Source: Promethearchaeota archaeon (GTDB lineage Archaea > Asgardarchaeota > Lokiarchaeia > Sigyniarchaeales > SOKP01). Taken from it: 64,000 nucleotides of DNA. The position numbers were made by a program, and so were the translations under genes. Under the pieces are notes generated by a model, which saw only the letters and a program-made list of their open reading frames with translations, had not been told where the DNA came from and made no database searches. Location of the stretch: positions 96,001 to 160,000 of the forward strand of contig JAEOUA010000007.1 in NCBI GenBank assembly GCA_016839555.1, given 5' to 3'. This document shows positions 2,454 through 33,402 of this stretch, piece after piece. Numbering within the stretch: the first letter of the stretch is position 1; each line of letters begins with the position of its first letter.

Positions 2454-3248
2454 TTATTTTCCCTTAAACCTCGGTTCTCTTTTTTCTTTAAAAGCTCTAA
2501 TCGCTTCTCGAAAATCCCGAGTTTTATAAAGTTCCATATTTCTTTGTTTCTCTAATTCATGAGTTCTCAGAATAATTTCCTGAAAGTTTTGGTGAATAAG
2601 TTTTTTTTTCAATTCAATCGAAAGAGGAGTCTTATTTTTAGAAAGTAAATTTTTAGCTTGCGCTCTTGCATATGTTAATAATTTTTCCTTGGGAAGTACT
2701 TTATTGATCAGTCCGAGTTTTTCAGCTTTTACCGCAGTTATTTTTTCACCAAAATAGAGTATTTCTTTTGCTCTTTGAAATCCTACATATAAAGGAAGGA
2801 TATAAGACATTGCAGATTGAGCTATTACCCCTCGTTTTACAAAATTAAATTGAATCCATGCATCTTCAGCCATATAGATTAAATCCGCCCCCATTAGAAC
2901 CATGGTGATGCCTGCGCCAATTGCATAACCATTTAAAGCTGCAATAATTGGCTTTGAAAAATTCCAAAATTTTACCTTAGGTTTCTTTCTTTGTGTAGAT
3001 AGTGATTGTTGACTAAAGAATTTTAAATCAAAATATCCTCCCGAGGAAAAGGCATTAGCTTTTTTTGCGCCTGTAATGATTAAAAGCCGTGCATTTTTAT
3101 CCATTTCCATATCGGAAAGCACTGTTCCAATTTCAAAAAAAGTACGTTGAGATAAGGCGTTTCTTCTCTCCGGTCTATTGAGAGTAATTATATAAATTCC
3201 ATCCTTCTCTTTTTCATAAATAATATCCTCAAACTCATTAAAAGTCAT
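2454..3248 (-). CDS. Crotonase-fold enoyl-CoA hydratase/isomerase family protein
   Basis: ITLNRPERRNAL, AFSSGG, KPIIAALNGYAIGAG, C-terminal FKEKREPRFKGK; paralog of 25237..26058. Confidence 0.88.
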   Translation of the reverse strand: MTFNEFEDIIYEKEKDGIYIITLNRPERRNALSQRTFFEIGTVLSDMEMDKNARLLIITGAKKANAFSSGGYFDLKFFSQQSLSTQRKKPKVKFWNFSKPIIAALNGYAIGAGITMVLMGADLIYMAEDAWIQFNFVKRGVIAQSAMSYILPLYVGFQRAKEILYFGEKITAVKAEKLGLINKVLPKEKLLTYARAQAKNLLSKNKTPLSIELKKKLIHQNFQEIILRTHELEKQRNMELYKTRDFREAIRAFKEKREPRFKGK

Positions 3249-3377
3249 TTTTGCGATCTTTTTATTTTTTTAATTGTTCTAATAGGATAATTCCCCATAT
3301 TTATCTTAAAAGAAATAAATAGATTTCCGCATATTTAGATAAAAGGAAATTTTGTGGGGACTCTGATATCAGCAATA

Positions 3378-5213
3378 TTAAATCGTCTCATCCTTTATTT
3401 CTTCTTCATATTGCTTTCTTTTTTCCTTTAAATAAGCAGGAACAGGTACATCCCACCATCCCCATGCTGGAGATCCTTCATATTTAGGAGTATTATTTAT
3501 AATTACTTCGATAACGGCAGGTCCATCTTGAGAAAATGCTTCATTTAATGCAGGTTTGATCTCATCTGCTTTTGATATACGTGTTGACCAACATCCAAAT
3601 CCTGCTGCAATATCGGCGAAATTAGGAGAATAATAATTCCCATTTTTATCTTTAAATTCAGTTGCATGTCCTCTTTCAATTCCATATACATTCCATTGAA
3701 GGTCCGTAATTGCAATCCAAGCAGCATTGTTTAATATCATAATTACAACGTTTAATCCAAGCTGTTTTGCTGTATGGAGTTCTGCCATCGTCATCATAAA
3801 ATCACCATCTCCCAATAAACCAATCACTTGCGTATTTGGTTTTCCTAATTTAGCACCAATAGAAGCGGGAAGTGTATACCCCATAGTACTAAACCCTCCT
3901 GCTGAAATGCAAGTATTTGGCTCATAAAATTCAATCTCTTGAATCATTTGGGCTTGCACATTACCCGAGCTCGTTATTATAATAGCATCTCTATCAAGGA
4001 AATCCCTTACTTCCTTTAAAACGCATGAGATCATAACTGGCTCCACAGTATCATCAGCATATTCTTTTAAAAAATTGTACCACTTTTCTCTTAAAGCTTG
4101 TATCTCCTTGTAATAATCTTTCTTTTTATAATCTACAGGCTCATAATTATTTCTGAGATAATTTAATAAATCTCGAAGTACTGCTTTAACATCTCCTATA
4201 ATTCCCACATCAACCGGGTAATTCTTTCCAATTTCATGAGGGTCAATATCAACTTGAATAAGACGGGTATCATCTTCTTCCGGCCCAAAATTCCATGCCT
4301 CACCCTTTTTATAAGAACAGGTTGATTCATCAGCAAATCGAGTTCCTAAAGCGAATACGACATCAGAAGTTTTACTAAGTTCAATACCAATTTCCGTTCC
4401 TTTAGAACCCGTAGCCCATCCGAAGAGCGGATGATCATTAGGAAATGCATCTTTTGCCATCATTGAAGCTAAAACAGCACTTCCCGTAAATTCAGCAAGT
4501 TCTTTTACTTCTTTATATGCTTTTGAAGCGACCAGCCCCCCTCCTAACCATAATACGGGTCTTTTTGCTTTCATAAACAGGTCTGTTGCTTTTTTTATTT
4601 GATTCATGTCACCCCGAATTCTACCTTGGGGATGATGTTTTTCTACGACTGGGACTTGTTTGAAAGTTGGGGCACATTGAATATCCATAGGAAGATCAAT
4701 ATGAACTGGGCCAGGTCGCCCTTCTTGCATAATATTGCATGCTCTCTGAATTGTTCGAGGAACTTGATCCACTTGAGCTACTTCAAATGAACGTTTTACG
4801 AGAGGTCTTAATGCATTAGGGAGATCACTATCCCTTCGTCGTTCAATTTCTTGTAAAACACCTACCCCACGCATATGAACATGAGTATCACCCGTTATAA
4901 GTAAGACGGGCATTGAATCTACATACGCATCTGCTAATCCAATACAAGTATTTAATGCTCCCGGACCAATGCTGGTAAATACTGCTAACGGTTGACCTGT
5001 GACACGATAATAACCTACTGCCATATGAACTCCTGCTTGTTCCTGTTTTGGTTGAATTACTTGAATTTTATCTTTACGTCGATAAAGAGCATCAGTAAAA
5101 CCTAAATTTCCATGTCCTGGTATTCCAAAGATATAAGGCATTCCTTGGGCAATCAAATAATCTACAATAACCTCGGAGCCGGTTTTAAAATTCTCTTCTT
5201 TGTTAAGGCTCAT
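3378..5213 (-). CDS. Thiamine-pyrophosphate enzyme, acetolactate synthase/IolD-like
   Basis: FGIPGHGN, QEQAGVHMAVGY, TSIGPGALN, GRPGPVHIDLP and TPP motif GDGDF...NN. Confidence 0.85.
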   Translation of the reverse strand: MSLNKEENFKTGSEVIVDYLIAQGMPYIFGIPGHGNLGFTDALYRRKDKIQVIQPKQEQAGVHMAVGYYRVTGQPLAVFTSIGPGALNTCIGLADAYVDSMPVLLITGDTHVHMRGVGVLQEIERRRDSDLPNALRPLVKRSFEVAQVDQVPRTIQRACNIMQEGRPGPVHIDLPMDIQCAPTFKQVPVVEKHHPQGRIRGDMNQIKKATDLFMKAKRPVLWLGGGLVASKAYKEVKELAEFTGSAVLASMMAKDAFPNDHPLFGWATGSKGTEIGIELSKTSDVVFALGTRFADESTCSYKKGEAWNFGPEEDDTRLIQVDIDPHEIGKNYPVDVGIIGDVKAVLRDLLNYLRNNYEPVDYKKKDYYKEIQALREKWYNFLKEYADDTVEPVMISCVLKEVRDFLDRDAIIITSSGNVQAQMIQEIEFYEPNTCISAGGFSTMGYTLPASIGAKLGKPNTQVIGLLGDGDFMMTMAELHTAKQLGLNVVIMILNNAAWIAITDLQWNVYGIERGHATEFKDKNGNYYSPNFADIAAGFGCWSTRISKADEIKPALNEAFSQDGPAVIEVIINNTPKYEGSPAWGWWDVPVPAYLKEKRKQYEEEIKDETI

Positions 5214-5400
5214 ATTTTAGAAAATGTTCATAACTTTTTTAAATGTTTGCTTTTCCAATTAAAACATTTCGAAGTTTATTTGGGTTAATAAATGCTAAAA
5301 ATTACTATATTATTTTACTTTTTTTTAATTCTGAAATGAAGTTTTTTAATAAGGATTAGTTTAAATTATTATAAAATCAAAAAAATAAAATTTAATATCC

Positions 5401-6513
5401 ATGAAGATTGGCATTCTTGGCACCGGACTGAGAAAACAAATATTAAATTTACATATATTAGCATATTTAGAAAGAAAAGATACAATAATCAGTGCTTTAT
5501 GCGATAACACAATAGAGGGAGCAAAATCTAAAATAAATCAATTTAATTTTAGAGATTCAATAAATTTTTATACCGATTATAAGCAAATGATTGACAATGA
5601 AAACTTAGATATAATTGAAGTTCTCTCACCCCCTAATTTACACGCAGAATCAATCATATATGCCGCAAAGAACAATATCAATGCAATATTGGTCGAGAGC
5701 CCGATAGCAACATCATTAAAAGAAGCAGATAAAATAATTGAGATATGCAAAAATAATGAGGTCTTTTTATCCATTTATGAAAATTCTCTTTTTGCACCCC
5801 ATATTAAAGAAGCAAAAAATTTGATTGAAAACGATTATATCGGCGATATTGCCTCCCTTAGGATAAAAGTTGCAATTGGAATTGAAAAGGACGATAAGGA
5901 AAACGTTTTCAGGAAGTGGGAGGTACATGGACAAAATATAGACGAAATTGCGGTAAATCCAAATTCTTCCTTATTCGAGGCCGGATTTCATGCGTTTTCA
6001 TTGGCAAGATGGCTTTTTAATGAAGAGATCAAAAAAGTATTTGCATGGAAGGGAAATTATAACAATATGGAAGCCCCCATTTTTGTCAACTGGAAATGTA
6101 AAGAAAAAGAAGAGCATATTGTACCCAAATATGGTAATATGGAACTCACATTAATACCTAAGATAAAAATTCCTTCAAATTATTATCCAATGGATGAATT
6201 TATTGAAATAATTGGAAGTCGTGGATTAATGAAAATCAATCAATGTTGCTCAATTGGTAATAAAATGACAGAGGCACCTGTTTTCTCTCCCCTTGTTATA
6301 GTAAGGGATGGAAAGGTTGAAACCCAAAATGAGTTCCAAAAAGATTGGAAATATAGCTTCATAAATGCTACCAATTATTTTATAGAAGCCTTTAAGAATA
6401 ATAAAAAACCAGTTTTGTCTGGGAAAGACGCAAAAAAAATTTTAAACTTTTATCTGGCAGCAATTAAATCCGCTCAAATTAAAAAAGATGTTTATATAGA
6501 GGAAATAAATTAG
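5401..6513 (+). CDS. Gfo/Idh/MocA oxidoreductase-like protein with degenerate motifs
   Basis: N-terminal Rossmann fold, YTDYKQM...LDIIEVLSPPNLH; EKP motif reads ESP; paralog of 6531..7790. Confidence 0.8.
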   Translation: MKIGILGTGLRKQILNLHILAYLERKDTIISALCDNTIEGAKSKINQFNFRDSINFYTDYKQMIDNENLDIIEVLSPPNLHAESIIYAAKNNINAILVESPIATSLKEADKIIEICKNNEVFLSIYENSLFAPHIKEAKNLIENDYIGDIASLRIKVAIGIEKDDKENVFRKWEVHGQNIDEIAVNPNSSLFEAGFHAFSLARWLFNEEIKKVFAWKGNYNNMEAPIFVNWKCKEKEEHIVPKYGNMELTLIPKIKIPSNYYPMDEFIEIIGSRGLMKINQCCSIGNKMTEAPVFSPLVIVRDGKVETQNEFQKDWKYSFINATNYFIEAFKNNKKPVLSGKDAKKILNFYLAAIKSAQIKKDVYIEEIN

Positions 6514-27854: not shown

Positions 27855-27980
27855 AAAGAATTCTTCTTCTAAAAATCGTGAAAAAGACTTTTTATAAAAC
27901 TATTAAACTAATAATCCTTGAGAAAGTCTTTAGTAGAATTATAACATGATAGAAGGCTTTAATCAATACTTTAGTGATAA

Positions 27981-28949
27981 ATGATGATTCCATTAAATGT
28001 AAAAAAGCAAATTATAAGTGAATTCGCTAAAAATAAAAAATTAACACTTGCTCAAAAAGAAAGATTACTTTTTTTAATCGCTATGACCCGAGTATCTTAT
28101 GAAATTGGGGAGCACTTTTCTAAATATATTAAAAAAAACCGCGTGGATATTCAAGCTTTTTTACATAATTTAGATTCTGAAAGTAAAAATGAAGTAAAAA
28201 TTATATTAAAAGATCTTGAATATATGAATACTTTTACAGTAATAGACACAATAAAAAGAATTTTTAACAGAGTGGATGAAATCATGGAGCATATAAACGA
28301 TATAGAAGTCATTAAAAAAAAATATGTCTTATCAATGGATTTTTATCAAGAATCCGTTTTTAAATTTAAACATGGATTAAAATTTTTACCACATGATCGT
28401 ATAAGATCTTTAGAGGATAAAGACTTTCTCGATTGTGGAGCTTTTGTTGGTGAGTCAGCTTTGATGTTTGAAAGGGATTATCACCCAAAGAAAATTTATT
28501 CCTTTGAACCACTGCTAGATAATTATACTTTGCTCCTAGATACTATAAAAATAAATAATTTAAATAAAGTTATTCCTATTAATAAGGGTGTAGGGAAAAA
28601 GAGTGGTACTGCGTATATCTGTGCTCAAGGCTCTGCTTCATATATATCTGATAAAAATGGGGATGTTAAAATAGAACTTATATCAATTGATGAATTTACA
28701 ATTGAAAGGAATCTTTCTGTTGGATTAATAAAATTAGATGTTGAAGGCTATGAATTTGCCGCATTAGAAGGAGCAAAAAAGACAATAGAAAAATTTAAGC
28801 CAGTATTATTAATTGGTATATATCATAATCCAGAGGAATTTTTTGGTACCATACGATATATTCAATCCATACTGTCAAGTTATAGGTTTAGAATTAAGCA
28901 CTTGGTTGATCTTGTACCGCTAAATGAGACCTATCTCATCGCTTGGTAA
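27981..28949 (+). CDS. FkbM-family SAM-dependent methyltransferase
   Basis: FLDCGAFVGES, IYSFEP, IKLDVEGYE, KPVLLIGIYH. Confidence 0.88.
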   Translation: MMIPLNVKKQIISEFAKNKKLTLAQKERLLFLIAMTRVSYEIGEHFSKYIKKNRVDIQAFLHNLDSESKNEVKIILKDLEYMNTFTVIDTIKRIFNRVDEIMEHINDIEVIKKKYVLSMDFYQESVFKFKHGLKFLPHDRIRSLEDKDFLDCGAFVGESALMFERDYHPKKIYSFEPLLDNYTLLLDTIKINNLNKVIPINKGVGKKSGTAYICAQGSASYISDKNGDVKIELISIDEFTIERNLSVGLIKLDVEGYEFAALEGAKKTIEKFKPVLLIGIYHNPEEFFGTIRYIQSILSSYRFRIKHLVDLVPLNETYLIAW

Positions 28950-28986
28950 AATTTATCGTATAAGCTTAATAATCACCAAAATTAAT

Positions 28987-29913
28987 TTATTGCTTTAATA
29001 TTACGCCTTTTTTATTCAAATTTTTCAATAAACCTTCTGTTTTTGATATTTCATCGATCATTAATGGATTTCCTTTTATCCAGAGTGCCTTTAATTTTGA
29101 TAAACTAAGTAAAGCTTCTGGAAGACTTGATAAGTGATTGTTATATAATCTTAACTCCTTAAGTGATGATAAATTTGCTATACTTTCTGGAATTTTCTTC
29201 AACTGGTTATTCCCAACCCATAATTTTTCAAGAGTTCTCAAGTTTCCAATCAATTTTGGAATTCTGGTTAGATTATTATCGTCTAAAACAAGTTTTTCAA
29301 GTGAAGAAAGGTTTCCAATCGATTCAGGAATACTGGTTAACTGATTTTCATGTAAATACAATATTTTGAGTGATGATAGGTTTCCAATGGTTTTTGGAAG
29401 AGTTTTCAGTTGATTACGCTCTAAACCAAGAGTTTTTAGTGAGGAAAGGGTTCCAATCGATTCTGGGAGATCGGTTAGTTTATTATTACTCAAACAGAAA
29501 TATTTAAGCGATTTAAGATTAGATATTGACTCTGGAAGCCTTTCTAAATAGTTATCACTTAAAAATAATGCTTGGAGTGATTCTAACTTTATTATGAATT
29601 CTGGAAAAGTCTTTAATTGATTTTCATTTAAATATAGTTTTTCAAGTGATGTAAGATTTTGGATTGATTTCGGGATAATTAATTCTCTGTGTTTATAAAT
29701 CCCAATTCCAGAAATTCGATTTTTTTTCACCGTAAATCCCATTTTAGTATACCATCTAAGTTTGTCAACTTTTCTAAATTCAGAATTTACAAGAGTTTCA
29801 AATTCTTGCAAGATATTAGCTTCGAATTGAGGTATTTTAGCGCTTCTAAAGGAAACAATTTGTTGCAATTCTGATTTCTTCTTTCTCTTTTTCAAATTTT
29901 TGAAATTATTCAT
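28987..29913 (-). CDS. Leucine-rich repeat protein (~9 repeats of 23 aa)
   Basis: Repeated LPESIGNLSSLKxLxLxxNQL units after a non-repetitive N-cap. Confidence 0.9.
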   Translation of the reverse strand: MNNFKNLKKRKKKSELQQIVSFRSAKIPQFEANILQEFETLVNSEFRKVDKLRWYTKMGFTVKKNRISGIGIYKHRELIIPKSIQNLTSLEKLYLNENQLKTFPEFIIKLESLQALFLSDNYLERLPESISNLKSLKYFCLSNNKLTDLPESIGTLSSLKTLGLERNQLKTLPKTIGNLSSLKILYLHENQLTSIPESIGNLSSLEKLVLDDNNLTRIPKLIGNLRTLEKLWVGNNQLKKIPESIANLSSLKELRLYNNHLSSLPEALLSLSKLKALWIKGNPLMIDEISKTEGLLKNLNKKGVILKQ

Positions 29914-30114
29914 ATCCCTTTCTCACTTGAAAGCTATATTCCATAATAAATTGAAAGCTTAATTGAATTGTCATTTCTATAATTGAACTGTTTCTTTGAA
30001 AATCAAGTATTTATAAATTTTTAAATTTTTATATTTGTTAAGTTTATTATATTAAATAAGAAAGCATTTTCAATGCCATCAATATCATTTCTAAAATAAG
30101 AAAAAAATTTACTA

Positions 30115-31380
30115 ATGCGAGAAATTAGGTATAATTTAGACTCCGCAATTGAACTTGCAGAAGAATTTACAACTCATAAAATTAATGAACATAACCTAAT
30201 TATTTTACCAAATAGACCAACTTGGATGGTTTTATCTGACAGAGAATTTACAATTTTCAATAAATTAATAAAAAGCAATACTCTTAGAAGCGTTTTAGAT
30301 ACATATTCCGAAAAAGAAGTTTATTCTGTTCTTTTAAAAATTGAGCAAGCGCATTTCTATAAAGATGATATATCAGCTGAAATAGATTTTCTTCCCCCTG
30401 AACTTGTGCTTAATTTAACTAATCAATGTAATTTAAGATGTGTTCATTGCTATTCTAATTCAGGGAAGAAGGAACAAGATGAACTGACAACTCAACAATG
30501 GCTAGATATTATAGACCAATATTCTACATTTGTATCTAATGGTTCGGTCACTTTAACTGGTGGAGAACCTACCCTTTTTCCAGATTTATTAACAATTTTA
30601 AAGAAATTAAAATCTAAAAATCATGAGACTGTTTTATTTTCAAATGGAACAACAAATGGAGGAAAATTTGGATGGGATAAATTATGTGAATATCTTGATT
30701 ATGTACAATTTAGTTTTGATGGATTTACCCCAGAAATTCATGATAGAATACGCGGTCCAGGTGCCTTCAATAAAGTTTTAGGAGCTTTGAAAATAGTTTA
30801 TAAATTAGATAAACCTCTTCGAATTGGAATAAGTCTAATGCCACAAAACATAGATTCAATTGTCTTAAATTTAAAAAAATTCTTAATAAAATATGATCCG
30901 GACAAAAAAATTGGGTTGATCCTTACACCAACTGTAACATTGGGAAGAAATAAAGGGGAGTATTCCATTACATTTAGAGAAGTATTTTCAAAGGTAAGAG
31001 ATGTATTAACTGAGATTTGGAATGTAGGATGGAAAATACCAAAGATTTTCAAAAAAAATGTTCGCAGAACACGATGTGGAATTGGAACCTCAATTTCAAT
31101 AACATCAACTGGAGGACTTAAACCTTGTGTCTTTTCTAAACCTACAGGACATATATTAGAAGATAAATTAATTGATTGGCATTATTGTATGCTAGAAAAG
31201 TATTCAAAAGTAAGTGTTGATAATTATGAGCAATGTAAAAACTGCGATTTAAAATATATTTGCTCTGGGGGATGTGTATTATTTTTTGAACATAGAAAGA
31301 GATGTTCTACAGATTTAGAAGAAAATAAGAAAATAAAAAAATATTTTTACGAGAGACTTATCCACGAAACCTTTATATAA
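30115..31380 (+). CDS. Radical SAM/SPASM peptide maturase with N-terminal RRE/PqqD-like domain
   Basis: CNLRCVHC, TGGEPTL, SFDG...HDRIRG; SPASM CGIG...GGLKPC and CKNCDLKYICSGGC...C; ~90-aa N-terminal beta-then-helical extension. Confidence 0.88.
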   Translation: MREIRYNLDSAIELAEEFTTHKINEHNLIILPNRPTWMVLSDREFTIFNKLIKSNTLRSVLDTYSEKEVYSVLLKIEQAHFYKDDISAEIDFLPPELVLNLTNQCNLRCVHCYSNSGKKEQDELTTQQWLDIIDQYSTFVSNGSVTLTGGEPTLFPDLLTILKKLKSKNHETVLFSNGTTNGGKFGWDKLCEYLDYVQFSFDGFTPEIHDRIRGPGAFNKVLGALKIVYKLDKPLRIGISLMPQNIDSIVLNLKKFLIKYDPDKKIGLILTPTVTLGRNKGEYSITFREVFSKVRDVLTEIWNVGWKIPKIFKKNVRRTRCGIGTSISITSTGGLKPCVFSKPTGHILEDKLIDWHYCMLEKYSKVSVDNYEQCKNCDLKYICSGGCVLFFEHRKRCSTDLEENKKIKKYFYERLIHETFI

Positions 31381-31462
31381 GCCAAATCTTTTTTTAAAAC
31401 ATCAAAATAATTCTTCAATCTTTAATATTATTTAAATTTTTAGTATAAAAAGGGGTGATTTT

Positions 31463-31609
31463 ATGGTAAAATATAAAAAAACTGACACAGATTTTGTTAT
31501 TAAAGTTCCAGAAGATAATGAAATGAGTCAAAAAGAAGCCTTTAATGGAGTAAATATTGGTATGTGTTATATTAAAGTCCATAACCTATGTTCTGAAACC
31601 AAAGTATAG
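31463..31609 (+). CDS. Unannotated 48-aa peptide, candidate RiPP precursor: MVKYKKTDTDFVIKVPEDNEMSQKEAFNGVNIGMCYIKVHNLCSETKV
   Basis: Hand translation; strong AGGGGTGAT RBS at 31451-31459; 82-bp gap after the rSAM gene, same strand; charged leader-like N-half, two Cys in the C-terminal part. Confidence 0.72.
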   Translation: MVKYKKTDTDFVIKVPEDNEMSQKEAFNGVNIGMCYIKVHNLCSETKV

Positions 31610-31721
31610 AGTTTAATTCAACTACCAAAATAAATTTTAGAGAGTGTTATTGAATAATAATCTCAGAATTTTTTATTGATTAATTTTAATATTAATTAGA
31701 AATTTAAAATCTAAGCGTGAT

Positions 31722-33182
31722 TTATTTTTCAATTTTATGCATTATTTCTTTTATTTTTGCCTTTTCAGTAGTATCGGAGATTTTTTGAAGATGCTTCCTT
31801 AAAAATCTTCTAAATTTTCTTAATATTGAAGGATTATCTTCACTTAAATTAATTTTCTCATTAGGGTCACTCTTTAAGTCGAATATGTATTCTTTATTTG
31901 ATTGCTCATCAAAAATATATTTCCAATTATTTTTTCTTATTGAAATCAATTTAAATCCATCATTTTCATTTATTCTTATTTCACCATTTTTTTGATATCC
32001 TTCAGAGATGATAAAATCGTCTCTATTAATTGATTTTCCTTTAAGTAATGGTAAGAGGCTTTTACCTTGAAAAAATTTGGGAATTTCTAAATCAAAATAA
32101 TCTAATATCGTGGGAGCAATATCAATTAATTGTACTTGTTCCTCAACATATTTCACATTCTCTTTTTTACCCAACTCAATGATGATAAGAGGAATCTTTA
32201 GAATTTCATCGAAAATATTTCCAGTATGATGTAATAATTCATGCTCATAAAATGCTTCTCCATGATCTGAGGTAATTATAATCAAGCAGTTTTTTTTAAA
32301 AAGAGAATAAATTGTTTTAAAAATTTTTAATAAATATTTATCTACAAAATTTATTTCTCCATCATATAAATCAATCAAATTATTCAGGATTTCTTTATTT
32401 ATATGATATCTCCTAAAATTCATAAGAAATTTAGTATTTAATAACTCTTTTTCTCTTAAATTAATATTTTCTCTTCTAAATCTTAATAGGTTTCTTTTTG
32501 GTGGATTATAAGGATTATGTACATCCATGAAATGAGCACATAAAAACATATTTTTATTATATTTTTTTAAAAAATTAATAACTTTTCTTGAAATCAAAGG
32601 TGCATTATATTCAAGTGTTATGTATGGAATTAATATTTCAATTAATTTGTACATTCTAAATACTATCCAATTTCTTATTGTATCAAAACCTATTAAACAT
32701 TTTTTAATTTTTTCTAAAATTTTTTGATAATTTATAATTTTTTTTATATTTGAAAAAGCTGATATTTTAAGAGATTCATTTTTATTGAGTTTTTTTCGAG
32801 TTTGTGAAAATTTACTTAATTGTCCTTCAAAAAAAATATCAAAACCCCGATCATAATTGTAATGCTTTCCTAAAAAGGGGTTATCATGTATGAAATAAGT
32901 TAAAATATTATTTTTCTTTAAAATTTCTTGAAATGTCTTTTTTTGAGTAGGTAAAGGGGCATAACCTCCCCTTAAAAAAGGGAATATTGAAGAAAAAATG
33001 GCTGAAAATGAAGATGGTGAATCTATTCCGTTTGTATATGCATTTAAAAAAATTGTACCTTGGTTGATAAAAGATTCTAAATTTGGAGCCGTATTTCTAT
33101 AATATCCATAGCATTTTAAGCTGTCTCTTCTTAAAGCATCAATTGTAATAAGAATTACTCTTTTATTTGTTAATTTATTCAT
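31722..33182 (-). CDS. Sulfatase-like (alkaline phosphatase superfamily) hydrolase/transferase
   Basis: LITIDALRRD, HFMDVHNPY, YDGEI, TSDHGE, DIAPTILD, DLKSDPNE; no (C/S)xPxR formylglycine motif (DSPSSF instead). Confidence 0.85.
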   Translation of the reverse strand: MNKLTNKRVILITIDALRRDSLKCYGYYRNTAPNLESFINQGTIFLNAYTNGIDSPSSFSAIFSSIFPFLRGGYAPLPTQKKTFQEILKKNNILTYFIHDNPFLGKHYNYDRGFDIFFEGQLSKFSQTRKKLNKNESLKISAFSNIKKIINYQKILEKIKKCLIGFDTIRNWIVFRMYKLIEILIPYITLEYNAPLISRKVINFLKKYNKNMFLCAHFMDVHNPYNPPKRNLLRFRRENINLREKELLNTKFLMNFRRYHINKEILNNLIDLYDGEINFVDKYLLKIFKTIYSLFKKNCLIIITSDHGEAFYEHELLHHTGNIFDEILKIPLIIIELGKKENVKYVEEQVQLIDIAPTILDYFDLEIPKFFQGKSLLPLLKGKSINRDDFIISEGYQKNGEIRINENDGFKLISIRKNNWKYIFDEQSNKEYIFDLKSDPNEKINLSEDNPSILRKFRRFLRKHLQKISDTTEKAKIKEIMHKIEK

Positions 33183-33402
33183 TGATTTATCAATTTATTT
33201 CAAGGAATTAAATAAATACCTAATTCATCTAATAATTAAAGACTTGATATACGAAAATAATTTTAAGAAAACATTAATTTAAACTTTTTTAAGAATTTTT
33301 GTTTTTAGAAAAAGAGTTTCTACTTAAATTTTATAAAAAATTACAAAAAAATTTTAGAAATCAATAATTACTTAATTAAATAGGTAAAATACGAAAGCAA
33401 CA

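Follow-up and report, generated by a model that had tools for sequence, protein, structure and literature searches.

A 64,000-nucleotide stretch of a Promethearchaeota archaeon genome (Lokiarchaeia; Sigyniarchaeales; SOKP01; assembly GCA_016839555.1, contig JAEOUA010000007.1, positions 96,001 to 160,000 of the forward strand), hereafter called the window, carries a gene for a radical S-adenosylmethionine (SAM) enzyme with a SPASM domain, followed on the same strand by a small open reading frame (ORF) that encodes 48 residues. We consider it probable that this peptide is the substrate of the enzyme and that the two genes form a minimal module for a peptide that is made on the ribosome and modified after translation (RiPP). 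An earlier note on this DNA had interpreted the locus as a RiPP pathway, and two findings now support that interpretation: the N terminus of the enzyme is modelled with the fold of a RiPP recognition element (RRE), and the small ORF is conserved in company with an orthologue of the enzyme. The features on which the argument is built are the following.

30115 to 31380, plus strand: gene for the putative radical SAM/SPASM peptide maturase, 421 residues, an intact ORF that matches Pfam Radical_SAM
30115 to 30399, plus strand: N-terminal RRE (PqqD-like winged helix), residues 1-95, structured from about residue 15 to 80, predicted by AlphaFold and fold searches
30427 to 30450, plus strand: CX3CX2C motif of the SAM-binding 4Fe-4S cluster (C105, C109, C112), unchanged across 26 aligned homologues
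31045 to 31377, plus strand: SPASM domain, residues 311-421, seven cysteines, assigned from the cysteine motif and fold matches
31451 to 31459, plus strand: Shine-Dalgarno (SD) sequence AGGGGTGAT, 3 nt 5' of the ATG, with a 6-nt anti-SD match
31463 to 31609, plus strand: gene for the 48-residue candidate precursor peptide, with a homologue (P0037), the sole ORF of at least 20 residues in the flanking intergenic DNA apart from its antisense shadow
31463 to 31552, plus strand: leader-like half, residues 1-30, charged
31553 to 31606, plus strand: core-like half, residues 31-48, NIGMCYIKVHNLCSETKV, with Cys35 and Cys43
31722 to 33182, minus strand: sulfatase-like gene (alkaline-phosphatase superfamily), convergent with the peptide gene (Pfam Sulfatase, 1.9e-32)

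The enzyme and its predicted leader-binding domain

Membership of the radical SAM superfamily, which is defined by this motif and a partial TIM-barrel fold, is indicated by CX3CX2C, by a Pfam Radical_SAM (PF04055) score of 83.5 bits against a cutoff of 29.5 bits, and by fold matches with Z scores of 20 to 26; Fer4_12 was also matched. The CxxxCxxC motif reported in the earlier note is thus C105/C109/C112, and the full SPASM cysteine set that it described is likewise present. The SPASM domain is defined by the pattern Cx9-15Gx4C / Cx2Cx5Cx3C / C, whose seven cysteines serve two auxiliary 4Fe-4S clusters. Here the sequence reads C321-x11-G-x4-C338, then C374-x2-C377-x5-C383-x3-C387-x9-C397, and these positions are invariant or nearly so in the 26 homologues. 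Since the Pfam SPASM model (PF13186) scores 15.6 bits, under its cutoff of 21.5 bits, we base this assignment on the cysteine motif together with fold matches, in which the model aligns to SPASM enzymes through residue 421. There is no conserved eighth cysteine just upstream of the seven, and the same holds for CteB.

The full-length AlphaFold model, built from 26 homologues, has a predicted local distance difference test score (pLDDT) of 84.8 and arranges the RRE, then the barrel, then the SPASM domain. Foldseek ranked SkfB, CteB and SuiB first, and comparison of the full model with the anaerobic sulfatase maturase anSME, CteB and SuiB gave Z scores of 24 to 26. In VIA-align, CteB aligned over model residues 15-420 (Z 24-25), whereas anSME aligned from residue 93 only (Z 25.8). 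At the sequence level, SkfB, PqqE and CteB were the only PDB matches at E <= 0.001. PADLOC returned a generic viperin match limited to residues 99-228 of the radical SAM core, and the locus fits no known defence system.

The N-terminal extension of roughly 90 residues had been proposed to be an RRE of the PqqD type, and this is what the models and fold comparisons indicate. The RRE fold is a winged helix-turn-helix of three antiparallel strands followed by three helices, and the modelled domain fits the published definition (PMC8326336). Strands at residues 19-23, 26-31 and 36-40 precede helices at residues 42-52, 57-63 and 66-79, with a pLDDT of about 90, and residues 1-95 folded alone gave a pLDDT of 84.5. 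A fold search with this domain only, run without Foldseek pre-filtering, found the lasso-peptide B1 protein 6jx3 as the best match (Z 8.4, 75 residues aligned, root-mean-square deviation 2.8), with further matches to TbiB1 (5v1u, Z 7.7), the TigE N terminus (Z 7.5) and PqqD (5sxy, Z 5.8), and others to ThcOx, MccB, the PbtF RRE, MibB, the CteB N terminus, LynD, TbtB, NisB and TglI. Most of the top-scoring matches are RiPP leader-binding domains; the Z scores are modest, for so small a domain, and the list is one-sided. Within the domain, P35, W37, L40, E44 and F48 are conserved in 13 relatives.

Close relatives of the enzyme number only three, P0002 (80% identical), P0003 (67%) and P0004, already down to 32%. 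Searches of 399 further Asgard species genomes, 134 of them from the same family and 160 from the same class, turned up no orthologue; the phylum-level search scored only four candidates per genome. Scanning genome contigs with generic radical SAM/SPASM patterns returned 80 distant loci and no orthologue, and in the metagenome contigs the P0004 query gave distant radical SAM proteins only, while the peptide alignment matched nothing. Searching with the N-terminal domain alone brought out a small clade of RRE-radical SAM-SPASM proteins, 416-436 residues long, and StsB was the best family for eight of the nine relatives scanned, most of which came from this search. Named members come from Campylobacter (P0049) and from an Oscillospiraceae metagenome-assembled genome (P0005), and the nearest Atlas clusters are bacterial; judging from these sequences, the module may have been imported from bacteria.

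At 3147-6347 of locus L031 of the ANME-1 archaeon GoMg1 (QBUL01000188.1), a distant gene of the same architecture, encoding 475 residues, follows two genes for paralogous proteins of 340 and 225 residues. A motif of ~22 residues, E-D-E-T-Y-x-F-x-P-x-V-Y-K-K-P-x-F-A-P-E-x-F, occurs twice in each paralogue, and the two could be multi-core substrates of that enzyme; no obvious small precursor lies beside the radical SAM gene at this ANME-1 locus.

The 48-residue peptide and its conservation

The peptide ORF begins 82 bp after the enzyme gene on the same strand, as the earlier note had read it. Among ORFs of at least 20 residues it stands alone in the intergenic stretches that flank the enzyme gene, except for its own antisense shadow. 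Since it is the plus-strand frame that has the conserved homologue, this 55-residue low-complexity ORF, at 31415-31582 on the minus strand, is most likely no more than a shadow.

A database of 5.8 billion clustered proteins holds two such peptides only, the window's own and P0037, an NCBI protein that is also 48 residues long and 73% identical. All 13 substitutions, mostly conservative, fall within residues 1-30, and residues 31-48 are identical; the chance that all 13 would land in the first 30 residues is 6e-4, and that of any identical run of at least 18 residues is 0.009. The comparison supports the division proposed earlier into a charged leader-like half, in which the stretch T-x-F-V-I-x-V-P-E is conserved, and a core-like half: 17 of 30 leader residues are identical as against 18 of 18 in the core, and both cysteines, Cys35 and Cys43 (C-x7-C), are invariant. 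In our view the ORF is a gene on which purifying selection acts, since a frame of the same length with 18 identical codons would be unexpected in non-coding DNA when the enzymes themselves are 80% identical.

Beyond P0037, the peptide stands apart. It matched nothing in NCBIfam or Pfam at E <= 0.1, an Atlas look-up gave a best score of 0.81 and no lead, and the core therefore fits no known precursor class, in line with what had been stated before. No match better than E = 0.06 was found in 60 relatives, and no paralogue was found in its own genome. The two cysteines of this peptide compare with six within the ~45 residues of SCIFF precursors (TIGR03973-type). An identity as a SCIFF, mycofactocin or PQQ precursor was rejected, as the cysteine count, the C terminus and the absence of family matches do not fit.

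The P0002 cluster of the enzyme includes P0038, an NCBI radical SAM orthologue (80% identical) on a 36,141-bp contig. P0037, P0038 and P0051, the best homologue of the sulfatase-like neighbour (72% identical), are each recorded on an NCBI contig of 36,141 bp, and the three almost certainly share one contig, so that the radical SAM, peptide and sulfatase-like genes would be found together again in a second genome, diverged to a similar degree. The conserved small ORF that was sought with homologous enzyme genes would thus be P0037, with P0038. Adjacency to the enzyme gene and a leader/core pattern, which are general marks of a precursor, are seen in the window, and co-occurrence would extend to this one further genome, making two instances in total. 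Between the two genomes, no part of the enzyme has diverged more than the RRE (74% vs 80-85% identity), which appears to parallel the diverged leader, a correspondence between sequences that we regard as suggestive only.

Expression signals were examined by scoring the 20 nt upstream of each ORF of at least 120 residues in the window (n = 51) against the complement of the 16S rRNA 3' tail. The peptide ORF has GGTGAT, a 6-nt anti-SD match that ties with the best three of the 51 long ORFs and vindicates the strong ribosome-binding site described earlier; GGTGAT occurs 20 times on the two strands of the window. As 28 of the 51 have no anti-SD match of at least 4 nt, most genes of the window are probably leaderless or SD independent, with SD motifs marking a minority. 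No SD motif was found upstream of the radical SAM gene, which is probably the first gene of its transcript. Its absence there, together with the strong SD of the peptide gene, fits an internal gene of an archaeal operon. Two further signals in the earlier note did not withstand comparison with shuffled sequence. The supposed TATA-like box, TTTAAAT at 31431-31437, is at chance level in the window (111 copies vs 112.6 expected from shuffles), and a TATA box at this position would place the transcript start near the ATG, thereby excluding the SD from the mRNA. The hairpin proposed after the stop codon (-9.9 kcal/mol, z = -0.9) is no more stable than chance, 35 of 200 shuffles folding as well.

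Probable substrate pairing, possible crosslink chemistry and alternatives

The pairing of enzyme and peptide is favored because the closest characterised enzymes (StsB/GggB, SkfB and CteB) are all leader-dependent peptide crosslinkers. In the mechanism that we propose, the two genes would probably be co-transcribed and the peptide translated from its own strong SD. The RRE would bind the charged, strand-prone leader at residues ~7-17, which span T-x-F-V-I-x-V-P-E, and this binding would bring the invariant C-terminal core into the radical SAM/SPASM active site, where 5'-deoxyadenosyl radical chemistry could install one or two intramolecular crosslinks. In CteB, the leader binds as a strand between β3 and α3 of the RRE (PMC8326336). 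The likeliest chemistry would be the formation of Cys35/Cys43-derived thioethers of the sactionine or ranthionine type, in which the cysteine sulfur is joined to Cα or to Cβ/Cγ, respectively, of an acceptor residue, because the three nearest characterised enzymes make cysteine thioethers, because a seven-cysteine SPASM domain would leave an iron site open for a substrate thiolate, as in CteB (PMC8326336), and because GggB forms two Cys-to-(+3) rings in a two-cysteine core (PMC8172795). Two small unnested rings could result, as in streptosactin, where each cysteine is linked to the residue three positions downstream (PMC8172795); by analogy, the GggB pattern would point to Lys38 and Thr46 here. 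That the product carries thioether links specifically is a tentative proposal, which could well prove wrong.

The best-scoring NCBIfam model is StsB (NF045574; 3.7e-37, 128.3 bits), and its alignment over residues 11-389 takes in the N-terminal domain. StsB/GggB, the streptosactin sactisynthase of Streptococcus, resembles the window's enzyme as an RRE-radical SAM-SPASM protein paired with a short two-cysteine precursor, GggA. The precursor sequences are, however, unrelated and the score is far under the family cutoff; the streptococcal cluster also contains a protease and quorum-sensing regulators, which the Asgard locus lacks, and here the host is archaeal and the enzyme gene precedes that of the precursor. 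CteB, the ranthipeptide/SCIFF maturase of Clostridium thermocellum (5wgg/5why), aligns with the whole model including the RRE (373-383 residues, Z 24-25), and it combines a seven-cysteine SPASM domain with an auxiliary cluster that has an open site for a substrate cysteine (PMC8326336). The two nevertheless share only 18-20% identity, SCIFF precursors have six cysteines in ~45 residues rather than two, and PapB/SCIFF-type family models score well under their cutoffs on this enzyme. The sporulation killing factor sactisynthase SkfB (6efn) ranks first among the PDB sequence matches (2.3e-17, residues 87-354) as well as in Foldseek. SkfB is likewise RRE-bearing and forms thioethers, but it carries, in place of the full SPASM motif, a twitch domain with one auxiliary cluster, and its family model (TIGR04403) gives 75 bits against 300. 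The best structural match for the combined radical SAM/SPASM core is anSME (4k36-4k39; Z 25.8, root-mean-square deviation 3.2, 315 residues), and a sulfatase-family gene adjoins the locus here; anSME differs in that it has no RRE and ligates its clusters with eight cysteines, and the neighbouring protein lacks C/S-x-P-x-R.

Several observations weigh against a thioether-forming pair. The Pfam PqqD model (PF05402) did not match the enzyme at E <= 0.1, although it is carried by some distant homologues (P0008, P0010 and P0024). With 128.3 bits against a cutoff of 625, the enzyme falls outside the StsB/GggB family, and it equally falls outside SkfB (TIGR04403, 75.2 vs 300 bits), PapB (NF047865, 70.9 vs 340) and MftC (TIGR03962, 84.3 vs 265), every other NCBIfam family also being far under its cutoff; chemistry is consequently not transferable from StsB, SkfB or PapB. 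Since the entire core is invariant, conservation does not single out the cysteines, and a three-residue cyclophane motif would also be compatible with Tyr36-Ile37-Lys38. The neighbouring genes include neither a protease nor an exporter, as had been pointed out before. Evidence for the pairing comes from two instances only, and adjacency in the second is deduced from the matching contig size. No peptide is recorded for the third orthologue of the enzyme, P0003, which lies on a contig of 2,113 bp, and the co-occurrence of the sulfatase-like gene means that a recently shared island may explain the pair, rather than a functional link.

These points bear on the alternatives to different degrees. 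Within the pairing itself, a lesser possibility is that the peptide is the substrate of the enzyme and receives a different modification, either a C-C or C-O crosslink or an epimerisation. The core contains aromatic-x-basic triplets with all of its residues invariant, so that Tyr36-x-Lys38 or His40-x-Leu42 would be cyclophane candidates; the enzyme belongs to no curated thioether family (128 vs 625 bits), and its strong fold matches also include SuiB, a Lys-Trp crosslinker, and EpeE, an epimerase. Thioether formation is favored instead by the two invariant cysteines in the core, by the top sequence matches StsB, SkfB and CteB, which are all cysteine-thioether enzymes, and by the absence of any cyclophane-forming family among the 25 best NCBIfam matches. 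It is unlikely that the enzyme matures a peptide encoded elsewhere and that the 48-residue ORF is a mere conserved neighbour. Shared island synteny could suffice for a co-occurrence that extends to the sulfatase-like gene, P0003 lacks a recorded peptide, and an enzyme gene ahead of its precursor gene is the less usual order. Nevertheless, the flanking intergenic DNA contains no other ORF of at least 20 residues and the genome no paralogue of the peptide, enzyme and peptide are found together despite both being extremely rare, and a leader with an invariant core is the pattern expected of a precursor.

An anSME-like activity, producing formylglycine from a cysteine or serine of the convergent sulfatase-like protein, is very improbable, even though the sulfatase-family gene lies 112 bp past the peptide stop codon and is conserved with the pair, no fold matches the catalytic core better than that of anSME (Z 25.8), and one homologue bears the name 'AslB' at JGI. 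At the site of C/S-x-P-x-R the neighbour reads D-S-P-S-S-F, so the formylglycine motif is absent, and 14 Asgard homologues share NGP[DE][ST]P[ST][SA]F there. Its family has hundreds of Asgard members, at ~50% identity, that occur without this radical SAM enzyme. Moreover, anSME aligns from residue 93 only and thus has no RRE, it is missing from the PDB sequence matches at E <= 0.001, and eight cysteines ligate its two auxiliary clusters (PMC8326336) vs seven here. We therefore rejected an anaerobic sulfatase-maturase identity on the missing sulfatase motif, the RRE, the seven cysteines and the independence of the neighbour's family from the radical SAM gene. A chance open frame in AT-rich intergenic DNA is hardly credible as an account of the 48-residue ORF. 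In its favour are the small size of the ORF, a TATA-like box and a hairpin no better than chance, and the overlapping antisense ORF of 55 residues, but a frame of the same length is kept at 73% identity with 18 consecutive identical residues where the radical SAM protein is only 80% identical, the SD is strong and correctly spaced, and gene callers predicted the ORF in both genomes.

Genome mining predicts ranthipeptide- and sactipeptide-type radical SAM clusters across Asgard and other archaea, with no characterised product (PMC12144867, PMC13635244); according to these surveys, no radical-SAM-modified peptide of any archaeon has one (PMC12144867, PMC13635244). The locus joins these predicted clusters (PMC12144867), which lessens its novelty. 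Compared with the mined archaeal clusters, it offers a specific precursor family and enzyme clade, conservation of the small ORF and a strain-specific island. As far as the sequences indicate, the precursor family has no known relatives, the enzyme clade is distinct and rare, and the system is compact enough to suit heterologous testing. It would be a long shot to claim that the pair represents the first defined Asgard modified-peptide natural product, with a precursor family without known relatives and an undescribed ring topology or crosslink; such a product may, for example, be closed into two small, unnested rings through Lys38 and Thr46, or bear a link from an aromatic residue to Lys. Given that no protease or exporter adjoins the genes, it could conceivably work within the cell or in signalling instead of being secreted as an antibiotic, and the intracellular or cofactor-like product suggested by the earlier note is likewise a conjecture. 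Since what is known of Asgard archaea comes largely from metagenomes, heterologous expression offers the practical way forward. The locus, a minimal system of two genes in ~1.5 kb, has a defined candidate substrate with a core of 18 invariant residues and lends itself to synthesis and testing in E. coli. A positive outcome would provide the first chemical structure of an Asgard RiPP and reveal the role of a rare, apparently mobile enzyme clade distantly related to the streptosactin synthase; after a negative one, the locus would remain one predicted cluster among many.

The island between pyrG and carA

27855 to 33402, no strand assigned: low-GC accessory insert of ~5.5 kb between pyrG and carA, delimited by comparison with congeners and by GC content

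The enzyme and peptide genes lie in an insert that separates pyrG from carA by 5.5 kb, compared with 0.3-1.3 kb in three congeners, and its GC content is 23-30% vs 32-40% in the flanks. Its cargo consists of an FkbM methyltransferase gene, a leucine-rich repeat (LRR) protein gene, the radical SAM and peptide genes, and the sulfatase-like gene. No tRNA or flanking direct repeats were found at the insert ends. At the same junction, one congener (G002, L120) has a toxin-antitoxin-like pair of HEPN and nucleotidyltransferase genes, another (G006, L119) has small cysteine-rich ORFs, including a zinc-ribbon-like ORF of 59 residues, and in a third (G004, L121) the gap is only ~300 bp. The pyrG-carA junction thus appears to be a hotspot that collects variable genes.

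The FkbM-family methyltransferase (27981-28949, plus strand) has an N-terminal extension of ~145 residues and is encoded on the same strand as the radical SAM enzyme, with the LRR gene between them. The latter (28987-29913, minus strand) is divergent from the radical SAM gene and encodes a 308-residue protein made almost wholly of leucine-rich repeats (LRR_14, LRR_4 and LRR_8).

A role for the sulfatase-like gene in the peptide system is doubtful, although it is conserved alongside the radical SAM-peptide pair. The motif shared by its Asgard homologues points to a Ser/Thr nucleophile in place of formylglycine. The family may therefore comprise Ser/Thr-nucleophile hydrolases or transferases that are mislabelled as sulfatases in databases, and this genome carries one copy.

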